A DNA stretch of 64,000 nucleotides, taken from the sequence record SRR20825015_191; one strand, 5' to 3'. Below are positions 37,435 to 45,440 of this stretch, in pieces (the first letter of the stretch is position 1; every line of letters starts with the position of its first letter). The position numbers were made by a program, and so were the translations under genes. The notes beneath the pieces were generated by a model. It was given only the letters and a program-made list of their open reading frames with translations, had not been told where the DNA came from and did not search any database.

Positions 37435-38847
37435 ATGTCCGACCTCACCCACGAAACGATCAAAGCCGAGTTATCTTCGCAGACCTTGTTTGAGGATAAG
37501 ACATGGCAGCTTTCCCCTGAGGCGTGGCGGCTTACGCCAGAGCAACGCGAGGGGCTCGATCTGATTGGAGTGGCGTGTCTCGAGTTTCATCAAGCTCTGG
37601 AAACGCTTTATCTGCGCGCGGCGGCGGGAAAAAATCTCCTGCGTAACAAACCGCTGAAAGCCTCTTGGGTGGTGGATTATCTCGATCGCGGCAAACCGGC
37701 AGAGCTGATCGCGCACCAACGCGACGAACGTAATCGGGGAAAATTCCCCACGGTGCTTCGCCCGGATTTATTGTGGACGGAGGATGGCTTTGTGATGTCC
37801 GAGTTGGATTCGGTGCCGGGAGGCATCGGATTGACGGCTTTTCTGAATCGCTTGTATGGGGAGCAGGCAGGAATCGTCGGCAGTCAGGATGCGATGATCG
37901 AACTCTTCTACCAGTCGCTCAAAGCATTGAAACCGGGTGAGGCGAATCCGTTGATCGCACTGGTTGTCAGTGATGAGGCGGGGACGTATCGACCCGAGAT
38001 GCAGTGGCTCGCGGAGCAATTGCAATTGCAGGGGCGCCGGGTCTTTTGCCTGCACCCTGATGAGCTTTTCCCACTGGAAAATTCCCTCTTTTTCGATGCC
38101 GATGGCGATCCCGAGAGAGTCGATGTGATTTATCGATTCTTTGAACTCTTCGATTTGCCCAACATCGGGACGCAGCAGCATATCCTGGAGGCATGGCGAC
38201 AGGATGAGGTCGTGATTGCGCCGCCGATGCGGGCGTTTCAAGAGGAGAAACTGGCGATGGCCCTGTTTCATCATCATCTCTTGCCGGATTTTTGGTCGGA
38301 GAGCCTGAGTAAGAAATCGCGTAAACTGTTGGCAAAACTGATTCCCAAATCGTGGGTGATGGATCCTGCGCCGCTGCCTCCGGGCGCGGTGATGGACGGT
38401 CCACTGGCCGGAGGACGCGCGCTTAACGATTGGCGGGACCTGATCGGCGCCTCGCAAAAAGAGCGAGATTTGATCATCAAGATCAGCGGCTATCACGAAA
38501 CGGCATGGGGCGCACGAAGTGTGACCTTGGGGAGCGATAGCTCGCGCGACGAATGGCAGACTGGAATCGAGGACGCACTGAAGTTGGCCGAGACCAATCT
38601 GCATGTCTTACAGGAGTTTCGTAAGCCGAGCCGGGTGAAACACCGGATTTATGACCGCGAGCAACAGGTTCGCGAAGTCGAAGGTCGTTTGCGATTGTGT
38701 CCGTATTTTTTTGTTCAAAACGGGAATACGAACCTGGGCGGTGTGCTCGCCACATTCTGTCCGCCGGACAAAAAAATTATCCATGGGATGCAAGATGCTG
38801 CCTTGCTCCCGTGTAGGGTTTTCCCCTTAAGTGAGGCTCGTGCCTAG
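37435..38847 (+). CDS. Hypothetical protein with glutathionylspermidine-synthase/ATP-grasp-like motifs
   Basis: LRPDL..SELDSVPGG, IIKISG..WGARSV.LG, VLQEF. Confidence 0.55.
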   Translation: MSDLTHETIKAELSSQTLFEDKTWQLSPEAWRLTPEQREGLDLIGVACLEFHQALETLYLRAAAGKNLLRNKPLKASWVVDYLDRGKPAELIAHQRDERNRGKFPTVLRPDLLWTEDGFVMSELDSVPGGIGLTAFLNRLYGEQAGIVGSQDAMIELFYQSLKALKPGEANPLIALVVSDEAGTYRPEMQWLAEQLQLQGRRVFCLHPDELFPLENSLFFDADGDPERVDVIYRFFELFDLPNIGTQQHILEAWRQDEVVIAPPMRAFQEEKLAMALFHHHLLPDFWSESLSKKSRKLLAKLIPKSWVMDPAPLPPGAVMDGPLAGGRALNDWRDLIGASQKERDLIIKISGYHETAWGARSVTLGSDSSRDEWQTGIEDALKLAETNLHVLQEFRKPSRVKHRIYDREQQVREVEGRLRLCPYFFVQNGNTNLGGVLATFCPPDKKIIHGMQDAALLPCRVFPLSEARA

Positions 38848-38893
38848 CTCCCCAGCCGAGTATTGTCCATTCCCATCAGTGTTGCGTAAGTCC

Positions 38894-41800
38894 ATGCGGT
38901 TCATCGTCGCATGTGCGATTGTGGTATGTTGGATCGCGGAATCGGCTGCGCAGGCTCCCATCTCGGAGATTCAAGCACGGGCGTCGGCTGGTGACGTCGA
39001 AGCGCTCAATGAAATGGGTAATCGCTTGGCCAACGGCCAGGGCATCGCCCGCGATGATGCTGAGGCGATTCGATACTACACAGAGGCGGCGAAGCGTTCG
39101 TATGCTCCAGCCAATTTTAATTTGGGAATGATGCATGAGATCGGGCGGGGAGTGTCCGCTGATTTGCGTCAGGCTTTTGGATTTTATCTGCAGGCAGCCC
39201 AGCAGGGGTTTTCACCCGCGCAATTCAATGTGGGTAACATGTATGCCAGCGGGCAGGGGGTGGAGCAGGATTACTTTGAAGCGATTCTTTGGTTTCGGCA
39301 GGCCGCTGAAAATGGGGTGGTCGAGGCGCAGTATAACCTTGGTTTAGCCTATGAGGCGGGCCGTGGGGTCGGACGAGATGATGCTCAGGCTCAACGTTGG
39401 TATCGCATGGCTGCTGATCAGGGATATCCGCGGGCGGCGTATAACTTGGCACTGATGGTCGAGGAAGGCCGCGGTTCGCCGGTCAATGAAGTCGAGGCGG
39501 TGAAACTCTACCGAGGTGCCGCGGAGAAAGGGTTTGGCCCGGCGCAAAACAATTACGGGATCATGCTGGCAGAGGGCAAAGGAGGGTTGAAGGTCGATCT
39601 GGTGGAGGCGTATTTATGGTTCTGTTTGGCGGTGGATAATGGAGTTGATCCGTTGGGCCGCGACATGGTGATCGCGCATTTATCTCCTGCGCAGTTAGCA
39701 GATGCGAATGCACGTCTTGCGAGGATTAGAGGTGAGGATCCCGCGCCGATTGCATCGCGTCCGTCCGGTGCAAACACAACGACGGAAGCCGTGGACAACG
39801 ATGATCGTGCGTTGCGGGTGAAAATAGATGCGTTGGCTGCCGAGAATGCGCGACTGCAGGCCGCTTATAACAAACTGCAGATGGTGCGTGACGATCTCTC
39901 TGCGCAACTGCGTGAAAATTCTGAACTCAATTCGAAGTTGATGGCGCAAACCGAGTTGCTCACCCAGCAACTGGAAGTCAAAGCGGGAGAGACGACTGAT
40001 GTCCGGATCCAGCAACTCACCGAGACGAATCGGAGATTAAATCGCGAGGTGCGCCAATCGACGATGCAGCTCAGCAAGTTGAACCGTCTCTTAAGAATAG
40101 CTGAAACCAAATTGAGGGCGCAGCCAAACGAAGGCGATGAGACGGTTGACTCTGATGAACTCGTTACGCTGCGGGAGGAGCTGCAAGAACTCCGCGATAC
40201 CAATGCTCAGTTATCCGCTGAGAACAACCGCCTCTCCCAGAGTGGGATTTCAGCGGAGGATCTCGCGCAATGGCAGAAGCAGGTAGCGGTGGCCGAAAAG
40301 GCCGCCCAGGACGCGATTCGTCGCACTGAGGTGCTTGAAGAGGCGGTCAATACGGCTGAACAGGCGACTCAGCAAGCACTGGCGGCCCGCGATGAATTGC
40401 AAGCGAAGCTGACGTCAATGGCTTCCAATGACAGCAAGGGCGCGCAGGAAATATCTGAGATCAACGGGGTGCTGCGAAAGACGCGATCCGATTTGGTATC
40501 TGCTCGTCGGGAGACCGAGGAGATCCGGGTGCAATTACAAGCGACCCAAAGCGAGCTAAAGATTTTGGCCCGCGATAGTAAGGCGCAGCTGGAAAAGGCG
40601 ACGGCGGATGCAGAGAATGCGGCGAAGCTAGCTCGTGAGTTGGAGACTTCGAATCAACAGTTACAGTCGCAGGTCGACACGTTGACGACTCGTTTAGGTG
40701 CCTCTTCGAAAACAGGCGCTTCGAATGCGGCTGAGCTCGCCAGTGCCGAGCAAAAAGCGGCGGAAGCAGATGCTTTTGCCCGTAGCCTCGAGACGTCCAA
40801 TCGTCGTTTACTCGTGCAATTGAACGAGCTGAAGGAGTCGAAAGCGTCACTCATCGAACAACTCGAAGCCTCCTCAGAGAGTGCTCAAAAATATCGCAGG
40901 GAAGCCGAGCAATTGAGATCGGATAATGCCTCTCTGGCGGCTTATGAAAGCGCGCTTCGCTCCACTCAAAATCAGGTGCAAGTGTTGCAGAGTGAAATTA
41001 CGACGCTCAATCAGCGCTTGCGTGCGAAACAGTCCACCCAAGGGGAGATTGATCAGATTCGCGATCAATTGACCACTGAGGTGGCCTCACTCCGTGAGGC
41101 TTTGGCGGCCAAAGAAAAAGAACATGCCAATTTGTTTTCTGCAGCGACCCGGCAGGGTGAAGCTCATGAGGCTCTCCGGGCTCGCTACGATCAGGTGACC
41201 GCTCAACTGCAACAGGCTCAGGCGCAGATGACTGAGTTATCGGCCAAGAATCAACGTTTGGTGGCGAATTCCTCGCGATCGCCTGCACTGACCTCTGAAG
41301 ATCAAAAACGCTACGAAGCGGAGATTGATGAGGCGGCCCGGGTTCTGGCGGAAAAGGAAGCCGCGGTGAGCAATCTTACGGATCAGGTCGCATCGTTGCA
41401 GCAAGACTTGGAAACCTCTCGCAAAAGCGTCGCGGCGGCTCTGGCCGCGCAGGCGAAGGCGGCGGGAGCCTTGCCGAATGCGCAGGCGATGTTACTGGAA
41501 ATGCAGACCCTGCAATCACAGGTCGAGCAGCTCGAAGAGCAATTGGCACAATCGCGGGCGAGTTCGGCTGCCGAGGTGGCTCAATTGGCTGATCAATTGA
41601 GTTTGGTCACGAAGACGAACCAGTCACTGACCTCTGCCAATCGTGCCTTCCTCGAGATGAAATCATCCGAGATCGGAGCCGTGCAGAAGGAATTATCCGG
41701 AGTCCGTGAGGAGCAGGCTAAGTTGACACAGAAACTGGCCGACGCCGATAAAGTGATTTCGCGTCAGTCGGAAAGCGTGGCTGAGCTAACCGGTGCCAAT

Positions 41801-43027
41801 GCTGAACTCGGCAGAGCGAAAGAGGCTTTGGAACTGCAATTGGCCCGGGTGGTAGCCGAGAAAGGCAAGGCGCAGCAGAATTTGGAAGCAACCCGGGCGG
41901 TCTTGGCCGAACACGAGCAACGCGCAAAGATGTTGATTGCGCAGAGTGGCAGCGATGATGCCGAGAAGCAGGCATTGCAGGATAAAGTGACCACTCTGAA
42001 TGCGAAACTCGCCGCCCTGCAAACCTCGCAGGTCCGTCTGATGGAAATCGAGCGTCAGGCCGCGGCCCAGGACGCAGAATTGGCGACCTTGCAGCGCAAG
42101 TTGTCCGATGGCGATGAACTGCTCGCGCAGCAAAATACGACCATCGCTGAGCTCACCGGAGTGAATGAGAATTTGAGCAAGGATAAGGAGGCTTTGCAGA
42201 TGCAGTTGGCCCGTGTTTCCGATCAGAGCGGCACGGCTCAAAGTGAAATCGCGACATTGCGCAAACAGCTGGGAGAGCAAAGCGACCTCGCACGCCGACT
42301 CGGCGAGCAGGCGGATGCTGATGGATTACTCAAACAATCTTTGGAAAATCGAGCGGCGGATCTGGCCAACGAATTGAAGCAAGTGCAGGCCAAGCTCGCC
42401 GTCGCGCAGCAACAGGCGAATGCGAATTCGGTGGATGCCACGCGCGAGTCTGAAGAAAACGCCGCGTTGCAGCAGCAGCTCGCGGTAGTGCAGGCTCGAT
42501 TGAGTGCCTTGCAGGAGGAGAACGCGCGATTGGCTGGAGTGGAGCAAGCTCTCGAAGCGACCGAGCAGCAGGTGGCAAGCCTGACTGCCACGAGTGCGGC
42601 GTTGAACAATGCCCAGCGGGAATTGGCGGAATTGCGATCAGCGAACACCGAACTCAACAATACGATGCGTGCTCTGGAACGTGATCGGTCGAACCGGATC
42701 GCAACCCTGCAACAGGATAACGCGGCTTTGTCTTCACGTTTGCAACAGGCGCAGGGCACCCTCGATCAGATCGCATCGGCGGCCCGATTGATCAATCCGA
42801 CTTCCATGAACAATGCGTCCCAGACATCCTCGGGAGGCACTCAGGTTAGCTCGCGTCCCGCTTCAGCTGAGCGCGAACACATTGTCGTTCAGGGCGATTC
42901 TCTTTCCCGGATCAGCCTGCGCTATTACGGCACAAGCACCCGATGGCAGGAAATCTACGAGGCCAACCGCGACGTTTTGAGTCGCGAGAATGTGCTTCGA
43001 CCAGGACAGCGCTTGAAACTGCCTTAG
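38894..43027 (+). CDS. Secreted Sel1-repeat / long coiled-coil / LysM protein
   Basis: Signal peptide; about 6 SEL1 repeats (AQ.NLG.MY..G.GV..D); long heptad-rich region; C-terminal HIVVQGDSLSRIS..YG...W..IY.AN...PGQ.L. Confidence 0.88.
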   Translation: MRFIVACAIVVCWIAESAAQAPISEIQARASAGDVEALNEMGNRLANGQGIARDDAEAIRYYTEAAKRSYAPANFNLGMMHEIGRGVSADLRQAFGFYLQAAQQGFSPAQFNVGNMYASGQGVEQDYFEAILWFRQAAENGVVEAQYNLGLAYEAGRGVGRDDAQAQRWYRMAADQGYPRAAYNLALMVEEGRGSPVNEVEAVKLYRGAAEKGFGPAQNNYGIMLAEGKGGLKVDLVEAYLWFCLAVDNGVDPLGRDMVIAHLSPAQLADANARLARIRGEDPAPIASRPSGANTTTEAVDNDDRALRVKIDALAAENARLQAAYNKLQMVRDDLSAQLRENSELNSKLMAQTELLTQQLEVKAGETTDVRIQQLTETNRRLNREVRQSTMQLSKLNRLLRIAETKLRAQPNEGDETVDSDELVTLREELQELRDTNAQLSAENNRLSQSGISAEDLAQWQKQVAVAEKAAQDAIRRTEVLEEAVNTAEQATQQALAARDELQAKLTSMASNDSKGAQEISEINGVLRKTRSDLVSARRETEEIRVQLQATQSELKILARDSKAQLEKATADAENAAKLARELETSNQQLQSQVDTLTTRLGASSKTGASNAAELASAEQKAAEADAFARSLETSNRRLLVQLNELKESKASLIEQLEASSESAQKYRREAEQLRSDNASLAAYESALRSTQNQVQVLQSEITTLNQRLRAKQSTQGEIDQIRDQLTTEVASLREALAAKEKEHANLFSAATRQGEAHEALRARYDQVTAQLQQAQAQMTELSAKNQRLVANSSRSPALTSEDQKRYEAEIDEAARVLAEKEAAVSNLTDQVASLQQDLETSRKSVAAALAAQAKAAGALPNAQAMLLEMQTLQSQVEQLEEQLAQSRASSAAEVAQLADQLSLVTKTNQSLTSANRAFLEMKSSEIGAVQKELSGVREEQAKLTQKLADADKVISRQSESVAELTGANAELGRAKEALELQLARVVAEKGKAQQNLEATRAVLAEHEQRAKMLIAQSGSDDAEKQALQDKVTTLNAKLAALQTSQVRLMEIERQAAAQDAELATLQRKLSDGDELLAQQNTTIAELTGVNENLSKDKEALQMQLARVSDQSGTAQSEIATLRKQLGEQSDLARRLGEQADADGLLKQSLENRAADLANELKQVQAKLAVAQQQANANSVDATRESEENAALQQQLAVVQARLSALQEENARLAGVEQALEATEQQVASLTATSAALNNAQRELAELRSANTELNNTMRALERDRSNRIATLQQDNAALSSRLQQAQGTLDQIASAARLINPTSMNNASQTSSGGTQVSSRPASAEREHIVVQGDSLSRISLRYYGTSTRWQEIYEANRDVLSRENVLRPGQRLKLP

Positions 43028-44438: not shown

Positions 44439-44453
44439 CGCTGCCTAGAGTGC

Positions 44454-44484
44454 AAAAAAAAGCCGCACTGGAAAGTGCGGCTTT
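44454..44484 (-). terminator. Intrinsic terminator closing the small two-gene unit
   Basis: AAAGCCGCACT-TTCC-AGTGCGGC followed by T8 on the minus strand. Confidence 0.85.
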
Positions 44485-44508
44485 GGATTTAATCGAAAAG
44501 ATTCCGGT

Positions 44509-44796
44509 TTAGGCGCTGCGACGTGCGTCCGTCTCCCAAGCCCGAAAATAGTAGTCGTGGATCTGGGTTTCGAGCTCTCGGCGGGACAGGGTGCTTTGAA
44601 GGCCAGTGGGGTTACCATTGGCCAACACGTAGGACCAGCGCACTGGGGCACCTTGGCCAGCGGGGAGTTGCACGATGTATCCGGCCGGGACGGGAGATTC
44701 GTCCACGCACACCTCGAGTTGGAGGTGGGAATCGGACCACACCGGTGCTGTGCTTCCGGGGAAACGGAAGCGCAGACTACGATGCAGTGAGCTCAT
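44509..44796 (-). CDS. Hypothetical protein, 95 aa
   Basis: MSSLHRSLRFRFPG...; its ATG overlaps the upstream TGA (ATGA); followed by a terminator. Confidence 0.7.
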   Translation of the reverse strand: MSSLHRSLRFRFPGSTAPVWSDSHLQLEVCVDESPVPAGYIVQLPAGQGAPVRWSYVLANGNPTGLQSTLSRRELETQIHDYYFRAWETDARRSA

Positions 44797-45050
44797 GCGG
44801 CGGCGGCTTTCCGTTCGTTGGCATTCGCCGCCTTGGCGGCTTCGCTCGCTAGATGCGTGAAGAACGAATCGCGTCGTTCCCGGGCCACTTCGAGATCCTT
44901 GGTGCCAAGCGAGCGACGGATGCGCTCCTTGGTGTAAGGAGTCGGGTGGATCGTGTAGTGAAGGAACCACGTTCCGTGGTTGTTCCACAGGTGGTGATTA
45001 GGGTTGTCCGCACGAACGCGGATTCCGGGGAGGTTATTGATGGTTGTCAT
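44793..45050 (-). CDS. Small protein, 85 aa, resembling an integrase N-terminal (arm-type) DNA-binding domain
   Basis: NPNHHLWNNHGTWFLHYTIH...ERIRRSLGTKDLEVARERRD; three-strand plus helix pattern with RRSLGT.D...A motif. Confidence 0.7.
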   Translation of the reverse strand: MTTINNLPGIRVRADNPNHHLWNNHGTWFLHYTIHPTPYTKERIRRSLGTKDLEVARERRDSFFTHLASEAAKAANANERKAAAA

Positions 45051-45099
45051 GATGCGTGATGGTCTGTGGTTGCAGGTTCGCGCATCAGGGATCGAAAAC

Positions 45100-45130
45100 A
45101 AAAAACCGACCTGAAATGCATCAGATCGGT
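45100..45130 (-). terminator. Leader (riboswitch expression platform) terminator
   Basis: ACCGATCTGA-TGCATT-TCAGGTCGGT followed by a T-run, about 50 nt upstream of the ATG at 45050. Confidence 0.85.
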
Positions 45131-45139
45131 ATCGTCTTC

Positions 45140-45270
45140 GGGAGCGTTACTGGTTCGTCCCTCAGGAGAGAAACGCACATCCGAATCCCCACAGGCGGGA
45201 CTCGATCCACCGTGGCCGCTCCCGGCCCGGTTGGCGGAATCGGTTCTGAGGCCGACTCGTTCCTGATGCA
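45140..45270 (-). promoter_or_regulatory. SAM-I/IV-like riboswitch aptamer
   Basis: P1 UGCAUC/GAUGUG; P2 GAGUCGG/CCGAUUC; P3 core CCAACC...GGUGG; P4 GAGUCCC/GGGAUUC; P5 CGUUUCUC/GAGGGACG; L3 GGGAGC pairs with 3' tail GCUCCC (PK-2). Confidence 0.75.
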
Positions 45271-45440
45271 GGCCATAAACTGGAGTATATGACGTAGTTT
45301 AGTCCAGTTATTTTTGTCTTAAATTGTAATTAATCTGACCTGTATCATTTAACAATAGGGTAAGATGCTCAATGACAATAAGAAAGGGGATTGTCGGAGT
45401 GGAATTAATCGCTCAATTGCCATTGAACTGAACCCATTCT

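Follow-up and report, generated by a model that had tools for sequence, protein, structure and literature searches.

The main result of this analysis is the linkage between a riboswitch of the S-adenosylmethionine (SAM)-I/IV class and a family of small proteins, described here from a 64-kb stretch of sequence record SRR20825015_191 (the whole stretch of 64,000 nucleotides (nt) is called the window below, and coordinates are those of its minus strand unless the plus strand is named). In the window, the leader RNA is followed by an intrinsic terminator and by two small open reading frames (ORFs), ORF1 and ORF2, and the same riboswitch was found directly upstream of an ORF1 homolog in 80/80 genome loci and, on the same strand, in 72/80 metagenome loci. 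We think it likely that a SAM-I/IV-class riboswitch switches the small ORF1 (plus ORF2) operon off when SAM is plentiful, with the riboswitch dedicated to ORF1, an arm-domain-like protein. The module suggests a still undescribed response to low SAM.

Linkage of the riboswitch to ORF1

Genome-wide counts given here refer to relatives' genomes, not to the genome from which the window derives. A scan of one genome per species returned 219 ORF1-encoding loci, 80 of which were fetched. A simple pattern for the core motif located it upstream of the ORF1 homolog in 78 of these 80, and a covariance model built from 77 distinct leaders (R1) matched the RNA in 95/95 of the sources searched, including the two loci missed by the pattern, one with the RNA farther upstream and one in which a contig end truncates it. 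From a metagenome scan that started from distant family members, 578 relatives were obtained, and the best 80 loci were examined; the eight of these outside the count of 72 comprised four with too little upstream sequence, one with a marginal match and three with none. In addition, R1 detected exactly one copy per genome, at the ORF1 locus, in 5/5 genomes of relatives, and the ORF1 locus was the only match (25.8-40.0 bits) of the Rfam SAM-I/IV family, RF01725, in five relatives' whole genomes. The SAM-I family (RF00162) had no match in five relatives' genomes with 150 prefilter candidates scored per genome, a depth at which weak riboswitch copies could be missed, and SAM-II and SAM-IV had one weak match each in these genomes, elsewhere and far below the cut-off. 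The metK loci of four relatives matched no Rfam family within E <= 1.

The genes that follow ORF1 vary between loci: a terminator only, ORF2, a 64-amino-acid (aa) HTH_17 protein, family-less proteins or, at one locus, metK. At this last locus (L180:531-1578), a SAM-I/IV-like leader precedes a 72-aa ORF1 homolog and a metK gene that overlaps it by 4 nt and matches S-AdoMet_synt_N (E = 2.9e-37); no other of the 80 metagenome loci shows such a direct link to a SAM gene. Nothing on an association of the riboswitch with ORF1 was found in the literature searched, a scope outside which the supplements of PMC2864571 and Trausch et al. 2014 lay.

Several side observations were made around ORF1-family and metK genes. 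In one clade (L135-L142, e.g. L137:957-1148), ORF1 is followed by the 64-aa protein, an excisionase-type HTH_17 protein (E = 4.3e-8) and a second recombination-derived DNA-binding module under the same riboswitch. Near-identical 74-aa ORF1 homologs lie downstream of rpmB (L28) in small (~2-3 Mb) Akkermansia-like genomes (L110-L120). Their conserved leader of ~190 nt has no match to R1 or to Rfam and may represent another kind of control element, so far undescribed, for the ORF1 family. Verrucomicrobiota genomes with up to 5-6 ORF1-family copies include G293 and G173, and one metagenome locus (L212) seemingly holds two copies ~550 nt apart. An identical 24-nt box, ATCACAGAATCGGCATATGTTGAT, stands ~60-90 nt upstream of metK at three loci (L128, L129 and L130, in G002, G003 and G001), with a variant at L127; the box occurs once per genome in 3/5 genomes, with 0 control matches, and is a candidate metK operator or leader. 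The short words ATCAC and ATCAGGAA occur both in this box and in the ORF1 leader, a similarity that was spotted after the fact.

Class, covariation and switching of the leader RNA

All features that the first-pass annotation had reported for the leader were confirmed at their positions on a reading of the minus strand. The SAM-I/IV-class aptamer (45136..45273; 30.5 bits with RF01725, 119 bits with R1, and covariation) comprises P1 (45270-45265 with 45181-45176), P2 (45258-45251 with 45244-45237), which is a continuous 8-bp helix, P3 (45234-45224 with 45217-45207), a P4 hairpin (45204-45182) and a P5 hairpin (45175-45156). The P1 5' strand together with junction J1/2 reads GCAUCAGG (45269-45262), and P3 holds CCAACC (45234-45229) and GGUGG (45211-45207). 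The L3 loop, GGGAGC (45223-45218), is the complement of GCUCCC (45145-45140) in the 3' tail, and the two are the 5' and 3' strands of pseudoknot PK-2. The 201-nt leader folds at -88.1 kcal/mol, compared to a mean of -67.4 (standard deviation 4.8) for shuffled sequences (z = -4.35), and this energy was matched by 0/200 shuffles.

In a cmscan search of the 501-nt leader region in E-value mode, the sole meaningful match was to RF01725, full-length from 45274 to 45140, at 30.5 bits (E = 0.0054) against a gathering score of 41.1 bits. At gathering score, no Rfam family was matched in the whole window or in 20 related loci. The first-pass reading of the leader as a SAM-I/IV type with P1-P5 and a pseudoknot between L3 and the 3' tail is upheld by the RF01725 match, the class architecture and the covariation, with the qualification that the match covers the full length of the model and stays below its gathering score. 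Leaders of a divergent clade also score below it, at 36.9-39.3 bits. Among metagenome leaders of distant family members, 17/20 matched RF01725 and six of these 17 were at or above gathering score (46.4, 46.1, 46.1, 43.6, 41.6 and 41.1 bits). With homologous leaders at these values, the window RNA appears to belong, below the threshold, to a continuous group in which accepted SAM-I/IV riboswitches are also found.

The strongly conserved RF01725 positions CAUC, CCAACC, GGUGG and GAUG are all present in the window alignment, and CAUC/GAUG of P1 and CCAACC/GGUGG of P3 are invariant in the 77 Opitutaceae leaders. Cmscan places the hairpin between P3 and the P1 3' strand as inserted residues, and the Rfam consensus structure line has no helix where the window RNA has its P4 hairpin. 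In PMC6890682, the SAM-I/IV class is described with an unbroken P2, without PK-1 and with a P4 helix, and PK-2 and a P5 stem-loop are described for SAM-IV. A by-eye parse of the crystallised SAM-I/IV RNA printed in PMC5393176 gives, in order, P1, P2, a looped P3, a hairpin in the junction, P1', another hairpin and a tail whose sequence complements the P3 loop, which is the element order of the window RNA. As the two RNAs share this order, the "inserted" hairpin is the P4 of the SAM-I/IV class. PK-1 was not seen in the window RNA in a search that was not exhaustive.

The aptamer is predicted to bind SAM selectively. A specificity variant of the SAM clan that senses S-adenosylhomocysteine or another SAM derivative would fit the sub-gathering score, the altered J1/2, a regulated gene that is no methionine/SAM enzyme and the metK genes of four relatives that have no known riboswitch. 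We regard such a variant as improbable, given that the CAUC, CCAACC, GGUGG, GAUG core of RF01725 is complete, that homologous leaders attain the SAM-I/IV gathering score, and that one leader of the gathering-level type controls a metK-containing operon.

Covariation was assessed in two alignments. In a MAFFT alignment of the 77 distinct leaders, which is independent of any structure, RNAalifold gave 35 pairs, 13 of them with a compensatory change, and with a 41-pair structure that includes PK-2, 97.1% of cells in the 77 leaders pair, compared to 30-44% when partners are slid by 1-3 columns. P1, P3 and PK-2 are invariant within Opitutaceae, and support for these helices therefore comes only from more distant copies. 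In the second alignment, of 75 distinct diverse leaders including metagenome copies, which was fitted to the model and is biased in its favour, 94.5% of cells pair (34-44% when slid) and compensatory changes are found in 24/35 pairs (7 in P2, 5 in P3, 4/4 in P4 and 8/8 in P5). The number of covarying P2 pairs is 5-7 across the two alignments. In addition, one P3 pair changes from C-G to U-A in the divergent clade, which came from a phylum-wide protein search.

PK-2 reads GGGAGC:GCUCCC in 85/86 leaders and AGGAGU:ACUCCU in 6/6 leaders of the divergent clade, with 0 cross-matches, and further variants in the diverse set keep complementarity through changes on both strands. L3 forms a 6-bp helix with its own tail in 45/75 leaders, compared to 562/11,610 combinations with foreign loops. 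In total, covariation supports P2, P3, P4, P5, PK-2 and the switching helix described below. For the three helices to which the first-pass annotation had pointed, P1, P3 and PK-2, the leader is kept and P3 and PK-2 covary, and P1 is left with no compensatory pair.

The intrinsic terminator placed after the leader in the first-pass annotation was recovered by a terminator scan (45094..45139), with an A/G tract at 45139-45132, a stem-loop at 45130-45105 and a U-tract at 45104-45094. Its 5' half and loop hold UCUGAUGC (45125-45118), the complement of GCAUCAGG, here called the anti-P1 box. The box reads CCUGAUGC in most relatives and is invariant although the terminator stem sequence differs between clades, including the divergent clade. 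Leaders with CAUCAGG have CCUGAUG downstream in 92/123 cases, those with CAUCAAG have CUUGAUG in 19/21 and those with CAUCACG have CGUGAUG in 5/6, with 0 cross-matches among the three classes. The own complement with at most one mismatch is present downstream in 155/162 leaders, in a table of which a few rows were mis-registered by the search pattern.

In the proposed mechanism, bound SAM would lock P1 and PK-2, the box would be held in the terminator hairpin, and transcription would end near 45094. When SAM is absent, the P1 5' strand would capture the anti-P1 box and block the terminator, and RNA polymerase would read through to transcribe ORF1, plus ORF2 where present. This is the usual OFF logic, with SAM leading to termination, which we infer for the window; repression by SAM fits one locus, where the same leader stands ahead of the metK-containing operon.

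The same logic could also act on translation, by way of two further elements. One is a second anti-P1 box, CCUGAUGCGCGA (45078..45089), downstream of the terminator, with CCUGnnGCGCGA conserved in the aligned leaders; the other is the start region, AUCACGCAUC-AUG (45048..45060), which is a mimic of the P1 5' strand (CGCAUCA) and lacks a Shine-Dalgarno sequence. This start region is nearly invariant across 79 leaders, and the start context CAUCAUG is found in 58/80 genome loci and 44/80 metagenome loci. Box and start region of the window fold at -12.6 kcal/mol (z = -4.0), and for the region after the terminator RNAalifold gave five invariant pairs at -3 kcal/mol with no covariation. A translational control layer in the window leader is possible. 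Many metagenome loci have short leaders, with ~22-25 nt from the end of the aptamer to the start codon and with the box directly after the PK-2 tail; control in those loci must be translational.

Upstream of the aptamer, the leader alignment revealed a promoter-like element (45302..45317), composed of an A-rich tract (45317-45308) and a -35-like CTGGAC (45307-45302). It is followed at 45278..45289 by TATACT (45289-45284) and CCAGTT (45283-45278), the latter aligning with the relatives' conserved CAyGTT at the -10-like position. A CT[CGT][GT]AC hexamer ends 30-32 nt upstream of GCAUCAGG in 79/79 leaders and has a run of at least five A ahead of it in 66/79, and a CAyGTT-like hexamer is common at the aligned position ~17 nt after it; with this spacing, the transcript would therefore start a few bases before P1. 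The A-tract and CTGGAC are thus a putative promoter. TATACT, which the first-pass annotation had proposed as the -10 box, is present as read, and similar boxes occur in only 7/79 aligned leaders. A scan for the sigma-70 consensus gave no promoter in the 45278-45289 region. The combined pattern of A-tract, CTSGAC and CAYGTT was found only at the ORF1 locus, in 1/5 genomes, with nothing in the window, and this search provided no evidence of a shared promoter class.

The encoded proteins and what the operon may do

ORF1 (85 aa, 44793..45050), marked as arm-type-DNA-binding-domain-like by a weak match to DUF6538, had been taken for an orphan gene. Instead, its profile recovers 904 clusters (50% identity) at E <= 1e-3, and 541 at E <= 1e-10, from 1.84 billion representatives. 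Close homologs number 1089 among 1246 candidates; the 120 listed are 74-98% identical, the named ones being hypothetical proteins of Opitutaceae, Cephaloticoccus or Verrucomicrobiota. Family members are 60-160 aa long, and the best 150 profile matches are all short stand-alone proteins (52-159 aa) without a catalytic domain. Invariant residues include HH, W, N, G, R..R..L.T, A and RD, and the family has an invariant motif of its own, NHHLWNNxGTW. Non-majority letters are distributed 278/101/1157 over codon positions 1/2/3, and codon differences to the window amount to 1487 synonymous and 479 non-synonymous. By these measures, ORF1 is a real gene under purifying selection. As a side observation, the last residues of ORF1 (44793-44801 in the window) are Ala-Ala in 26/26 close homologs; the divergent clade has Val-Ala here, and the Akkermansia-like copies have Ile-Ala-Ala. 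A C-terminal degradation signal would suit a short-lived regulator.

The homology of ORF1 to integrase arm domains makes a mobile-element origin conceivable: ORF1 could be what is left of an integrase N-terminus, or an accessory factor such as a recombination directionality factor, and its riboswitch would then have no bearing on SAM physiology. The excisionase-type HTH_17 partner in one clade, the up to six ORF1-family copies in some genomes and the variable flanking genes would all suit such an origin. Strong purifying selection, as seen in the codon differences, speaks against it, as do the short stand-alone form of all of the best 150 profile matches, the single copy in 5/5 complete or large genomes, the near-obligate riboswitch linkage and the fact that no integrase was seen adjacent to ORF1 in the window; we consider it very improbable.

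Leads on the fold of ORF1 all agree, and all are weak. A weak DUF6538 match is found in 26/26 family members (best E = 3.7e-5), the nearest named Atlas clusters are arm DNA-binding domains (0.89-0.90), and the ORF1 profile weakly matches the N-termini of long frames, 3/3 of those checked being tyrosine integrases. Against PDB sequences, the profile gave one chance-level match only. An AlphaFold2 model, with a predicted local distance difference test (pLDDT) score of only 69, has strands at 21-24, 27-37 and 40-47 and a helix at 53-83. Most likely, ORF1 folds like the arm-type DNA-binding domain of tyrosine integrases. Neither ORF1 nor ORF2 matched any family in NCBIfam, PADLOC or PHROGs, or any family of methionine, cysteine or SAM enzymes or transporters, in keeping with the first-pass view that neither is such an enzyme.

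Our best guess is that ORF1 is a DNA-binding regulator made at low SAM, a role that we hold only tentatively even if the riboswitch explanation given at the outset is granted. The regulatory relay that this implies is likewise a best guess, one that we infer. In its fuller and more doubtful form, the ORF1 family would be a previously unrecognised SAM-starvation regulator, a stand-alone arm-type DNA-binder that is made in amounts governed by its own SAM-I/IV riboswitch and passes the low-SAM signal on to other genes. If this were true, the relay would span many environmental bacterial lineages, its targets would be methionine/SAM supply, methylation-dependent processes or the variable downstream cargo, and the riboswitch would be mainly the sensor of a protein-based regulon and not a direct controller of metabolic genes.

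The main alternative to a DNA-binding regulator is that ORF1 acts directly on a protein or RNA, such as SAM synthetase, a methyltransferase or the ribosome, at low SAM, which would leave the riboswitch part unchanged. The weak fold assignment gives room to this alternative, and an ORF1 homolog is translationally coupled to metK in one locus and another stands right after rpmB in the Akkermansia-like genomes. Chains of ribosome hibernation factors are also found among the non-significant Foldseek matches (template modelling score 0.38-0.41). We rate direct action as unlikely, as the sequence-based leads all point to arm-type DNA-binding domains and the metK linkage is limited to 1/80 loci.

ORF2 (95 aa, 44509..44796) overlaps ORF1 by ATGA (4 nt) and belongs to no known family in searches of Pfam, NCBIfam, PADLOC and PHROGs. 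Its 29 divergent homologs all keep the same 4-nt overlap with ORF1, its AlphaFold2 model has a pLDDT of 87.3, and a Foldseek search of this model against the PDB returned nothing at E <= 0.001. On its conserved position and modelled fold, ORF2 is also a real gene. The operon ends in an intrinsic terminator found by the terminator scan (44453..44484, stem 44484-44459), with an 11-bp stem and then a U-run. Among 151 sampled Opitutaceae genomes, ORF2 is present in 14 and the riboswitch, as detected by R1, in 63, and each of the 14 ORF2 copies lies ~330 nt downstream of the riboswitch. ORF2 accompanies ORF1 in ~28/80 loci, and in most loci ORF1 stands alone with its own terminator. The first-pass description of a self-contained gene pair is right as to the ATGA overlap and, by these counts, wrong as to a fixed unit. 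ORF2 is instead an accessory partner, confined to part of Opitutaceae and known from this operon alone.

A toxin-antitoxin or anti-phage module that is triggered when SAM is depleted, as phage SAM lyases might do, has two points in its favour: the layout of ORF1 and ORF2 as small overlapping genes, with a DNA-binder-like protein first, recalls a toxin-antitoxin pair, and the genes after ORF1 differ between lineages. This reading has very little likelihood in our judgement. ORF1 alone with its own terminator is the usual arrangement, the pair is not always together, as a type II toxin-antitoxin pair would be (ORF2 in 14/151 genomes, the riboswitch in 63/151), and no PADLOC, PHROGs, NCBIfam or Pfam match was obtained, bar the weak one to DUF6538. 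The link to phage SAM lyases or defence that had been raised earlier found no backing in PADLOC or PHROGs.

The explanation that we prefer, a SAM-I/IV-class riboswitch that turns off an operon for a dedicated arm-domain-like protein, has to be weighed with the following points, which count against it. The window aptamer fails the RF01725 gathering score (30.5 vs 41.1 bits), the aptamers of close relatives in five genomes are all sub-threshold as well (25.8-40.0 bits), and J1/2 is AGGAAC in the window vs AAGAG in the Rfam consensus. P1 shows one-sided changes only, with 0 compensatory pairs in the 75 diverse leaders. Three metagenome loci with enough upstream sequence have no riboswitch, and in the phylum sample no riboswitch match was obtained for 14 loci, 11 of them Akkermansia-like. 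In three relatives, a fold with the antiterminator helix imposed is ~9 kcal/mol less stable than the terminator state, and the balance between OFF and ON therefore rests on kinetics; this energy test neither proves nor excludes the switch. The start-sequestering hairpin, strong in the window, has little stability in two relatives, and changes at its two central bases are uncompensated. For ORF1, the match to DUF6538 (20.9 bits, E = 2.8e-4) is under the Pfam cut-off of 27 bits, the model pLDDT is just 69, and Foldseek of the model against the PDB gave nothing at E <= 0.001, the top match being an integrase arm domain at E = 0.76.

Elsewhere in the window, a plus-strand ORF of 1398 aa (38831-43027) shows by eye Sel1-like repeats, a long Ala/Gln/Glu-rich coiled-coil-like stretch and a LysM-like end.

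Significance and comparison with known systems

Neither the class of the RNA nor its way of working is new. What is new is that the Rfam threshold misses a whole lineage of SAM-I/IV riboswitches; standard annotation overlooks the riboswitch that R1 detects in 63/151 sampled Opitutaceae genomes. Also new would be a switching helix on the P1 5' strand together with a start-codon mimic, and a riboswitch that appears dedicated to a large uncharacterised family of arm-domain-like proteins. One sequence word would serve three times, as P1 5' strand, in the anti-P1 boxes and as start-codon mimic, and its covariation across lineages makes it well suited for testing a combined control of transcription and translation. 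The riboswitch ties the ORF1 family to SAM status more tightly than any annotation and so gives a concrete handle on its function. In the five genomes of relatives, the sole SAM-clan riboswitch detected is at the ORF1 locus and metK is without a known riboswitch; ORF1 is a candidate regulator of methionine/SAM supply.

The window RNA shares with SAM-I/IV (RF01725; PDB 4L81 is a crystallised environmental representative) the CAUC/GAUG of P1, the CCAACC...GGUGG internal loop of P3, the unbroken P2, the P4 junction hairpin, a P5 hairpin that follows P1, and a PK-2 that joins L3 to the 3' tail. It differs in its score, 30.5 bits in the window and 25.8-40.0 bits in Opitutaceae copies, under 41.1 bits, in a P4 hairpin for which the Rfam consensus has no helix, and in a J1/2 of AGGAAC. 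Its cargo is a small arm-domain-like protein, not a methionine/SAM enzyme or transporter. Enzymes of methionine/SAM metabolism or transporters are the usual cargo of SAM-I/IV riboswitches.

With SAM-I (the S-box), which belongs to the same Rfam clan (CL00012), the window RNA shares the ligand-binding core; it differs in having PK-2 and neither a K-turn nor PK-1. S-box leaders follow a logic of SAM-dependent transcription termination, the same as proposed here. Classical S-box antiterminators use the 3' side of the aptamer, whereas the competing helix of the window would use the P1 5' strand and J1/2.

The arm-type domains of tyrosine integrases (DUF6538 and Arm-DNA-bind families) and ORF1 have a weak and consistent sequence similarity, and the ORF1 profile reaches integrase N-termini; three strands followed by a helix, the layout of such domains, are seen in the ORF1 model at its pLDDT of 69. 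Unlike these domains, ORF1 is a stand-alone protein of 60-160 aa without a catalytic domain, is not N-terminal to a tyrosine recombinase, has its own NHHLWNNxGTW motif and matches DUF6538 below the Pfam cut-off. Relays from a riboswitch to a regulator are exemplified by the cyclic di-GMP riboswitch ahead of the Clostridioides difficile flagellar operon, which includes sigD. If ORF1 is a regulator, the operon described here would resemble such relays, with a metabolite-sensing RNA setting the level of a DNA-binding protein that acts elsewhere.

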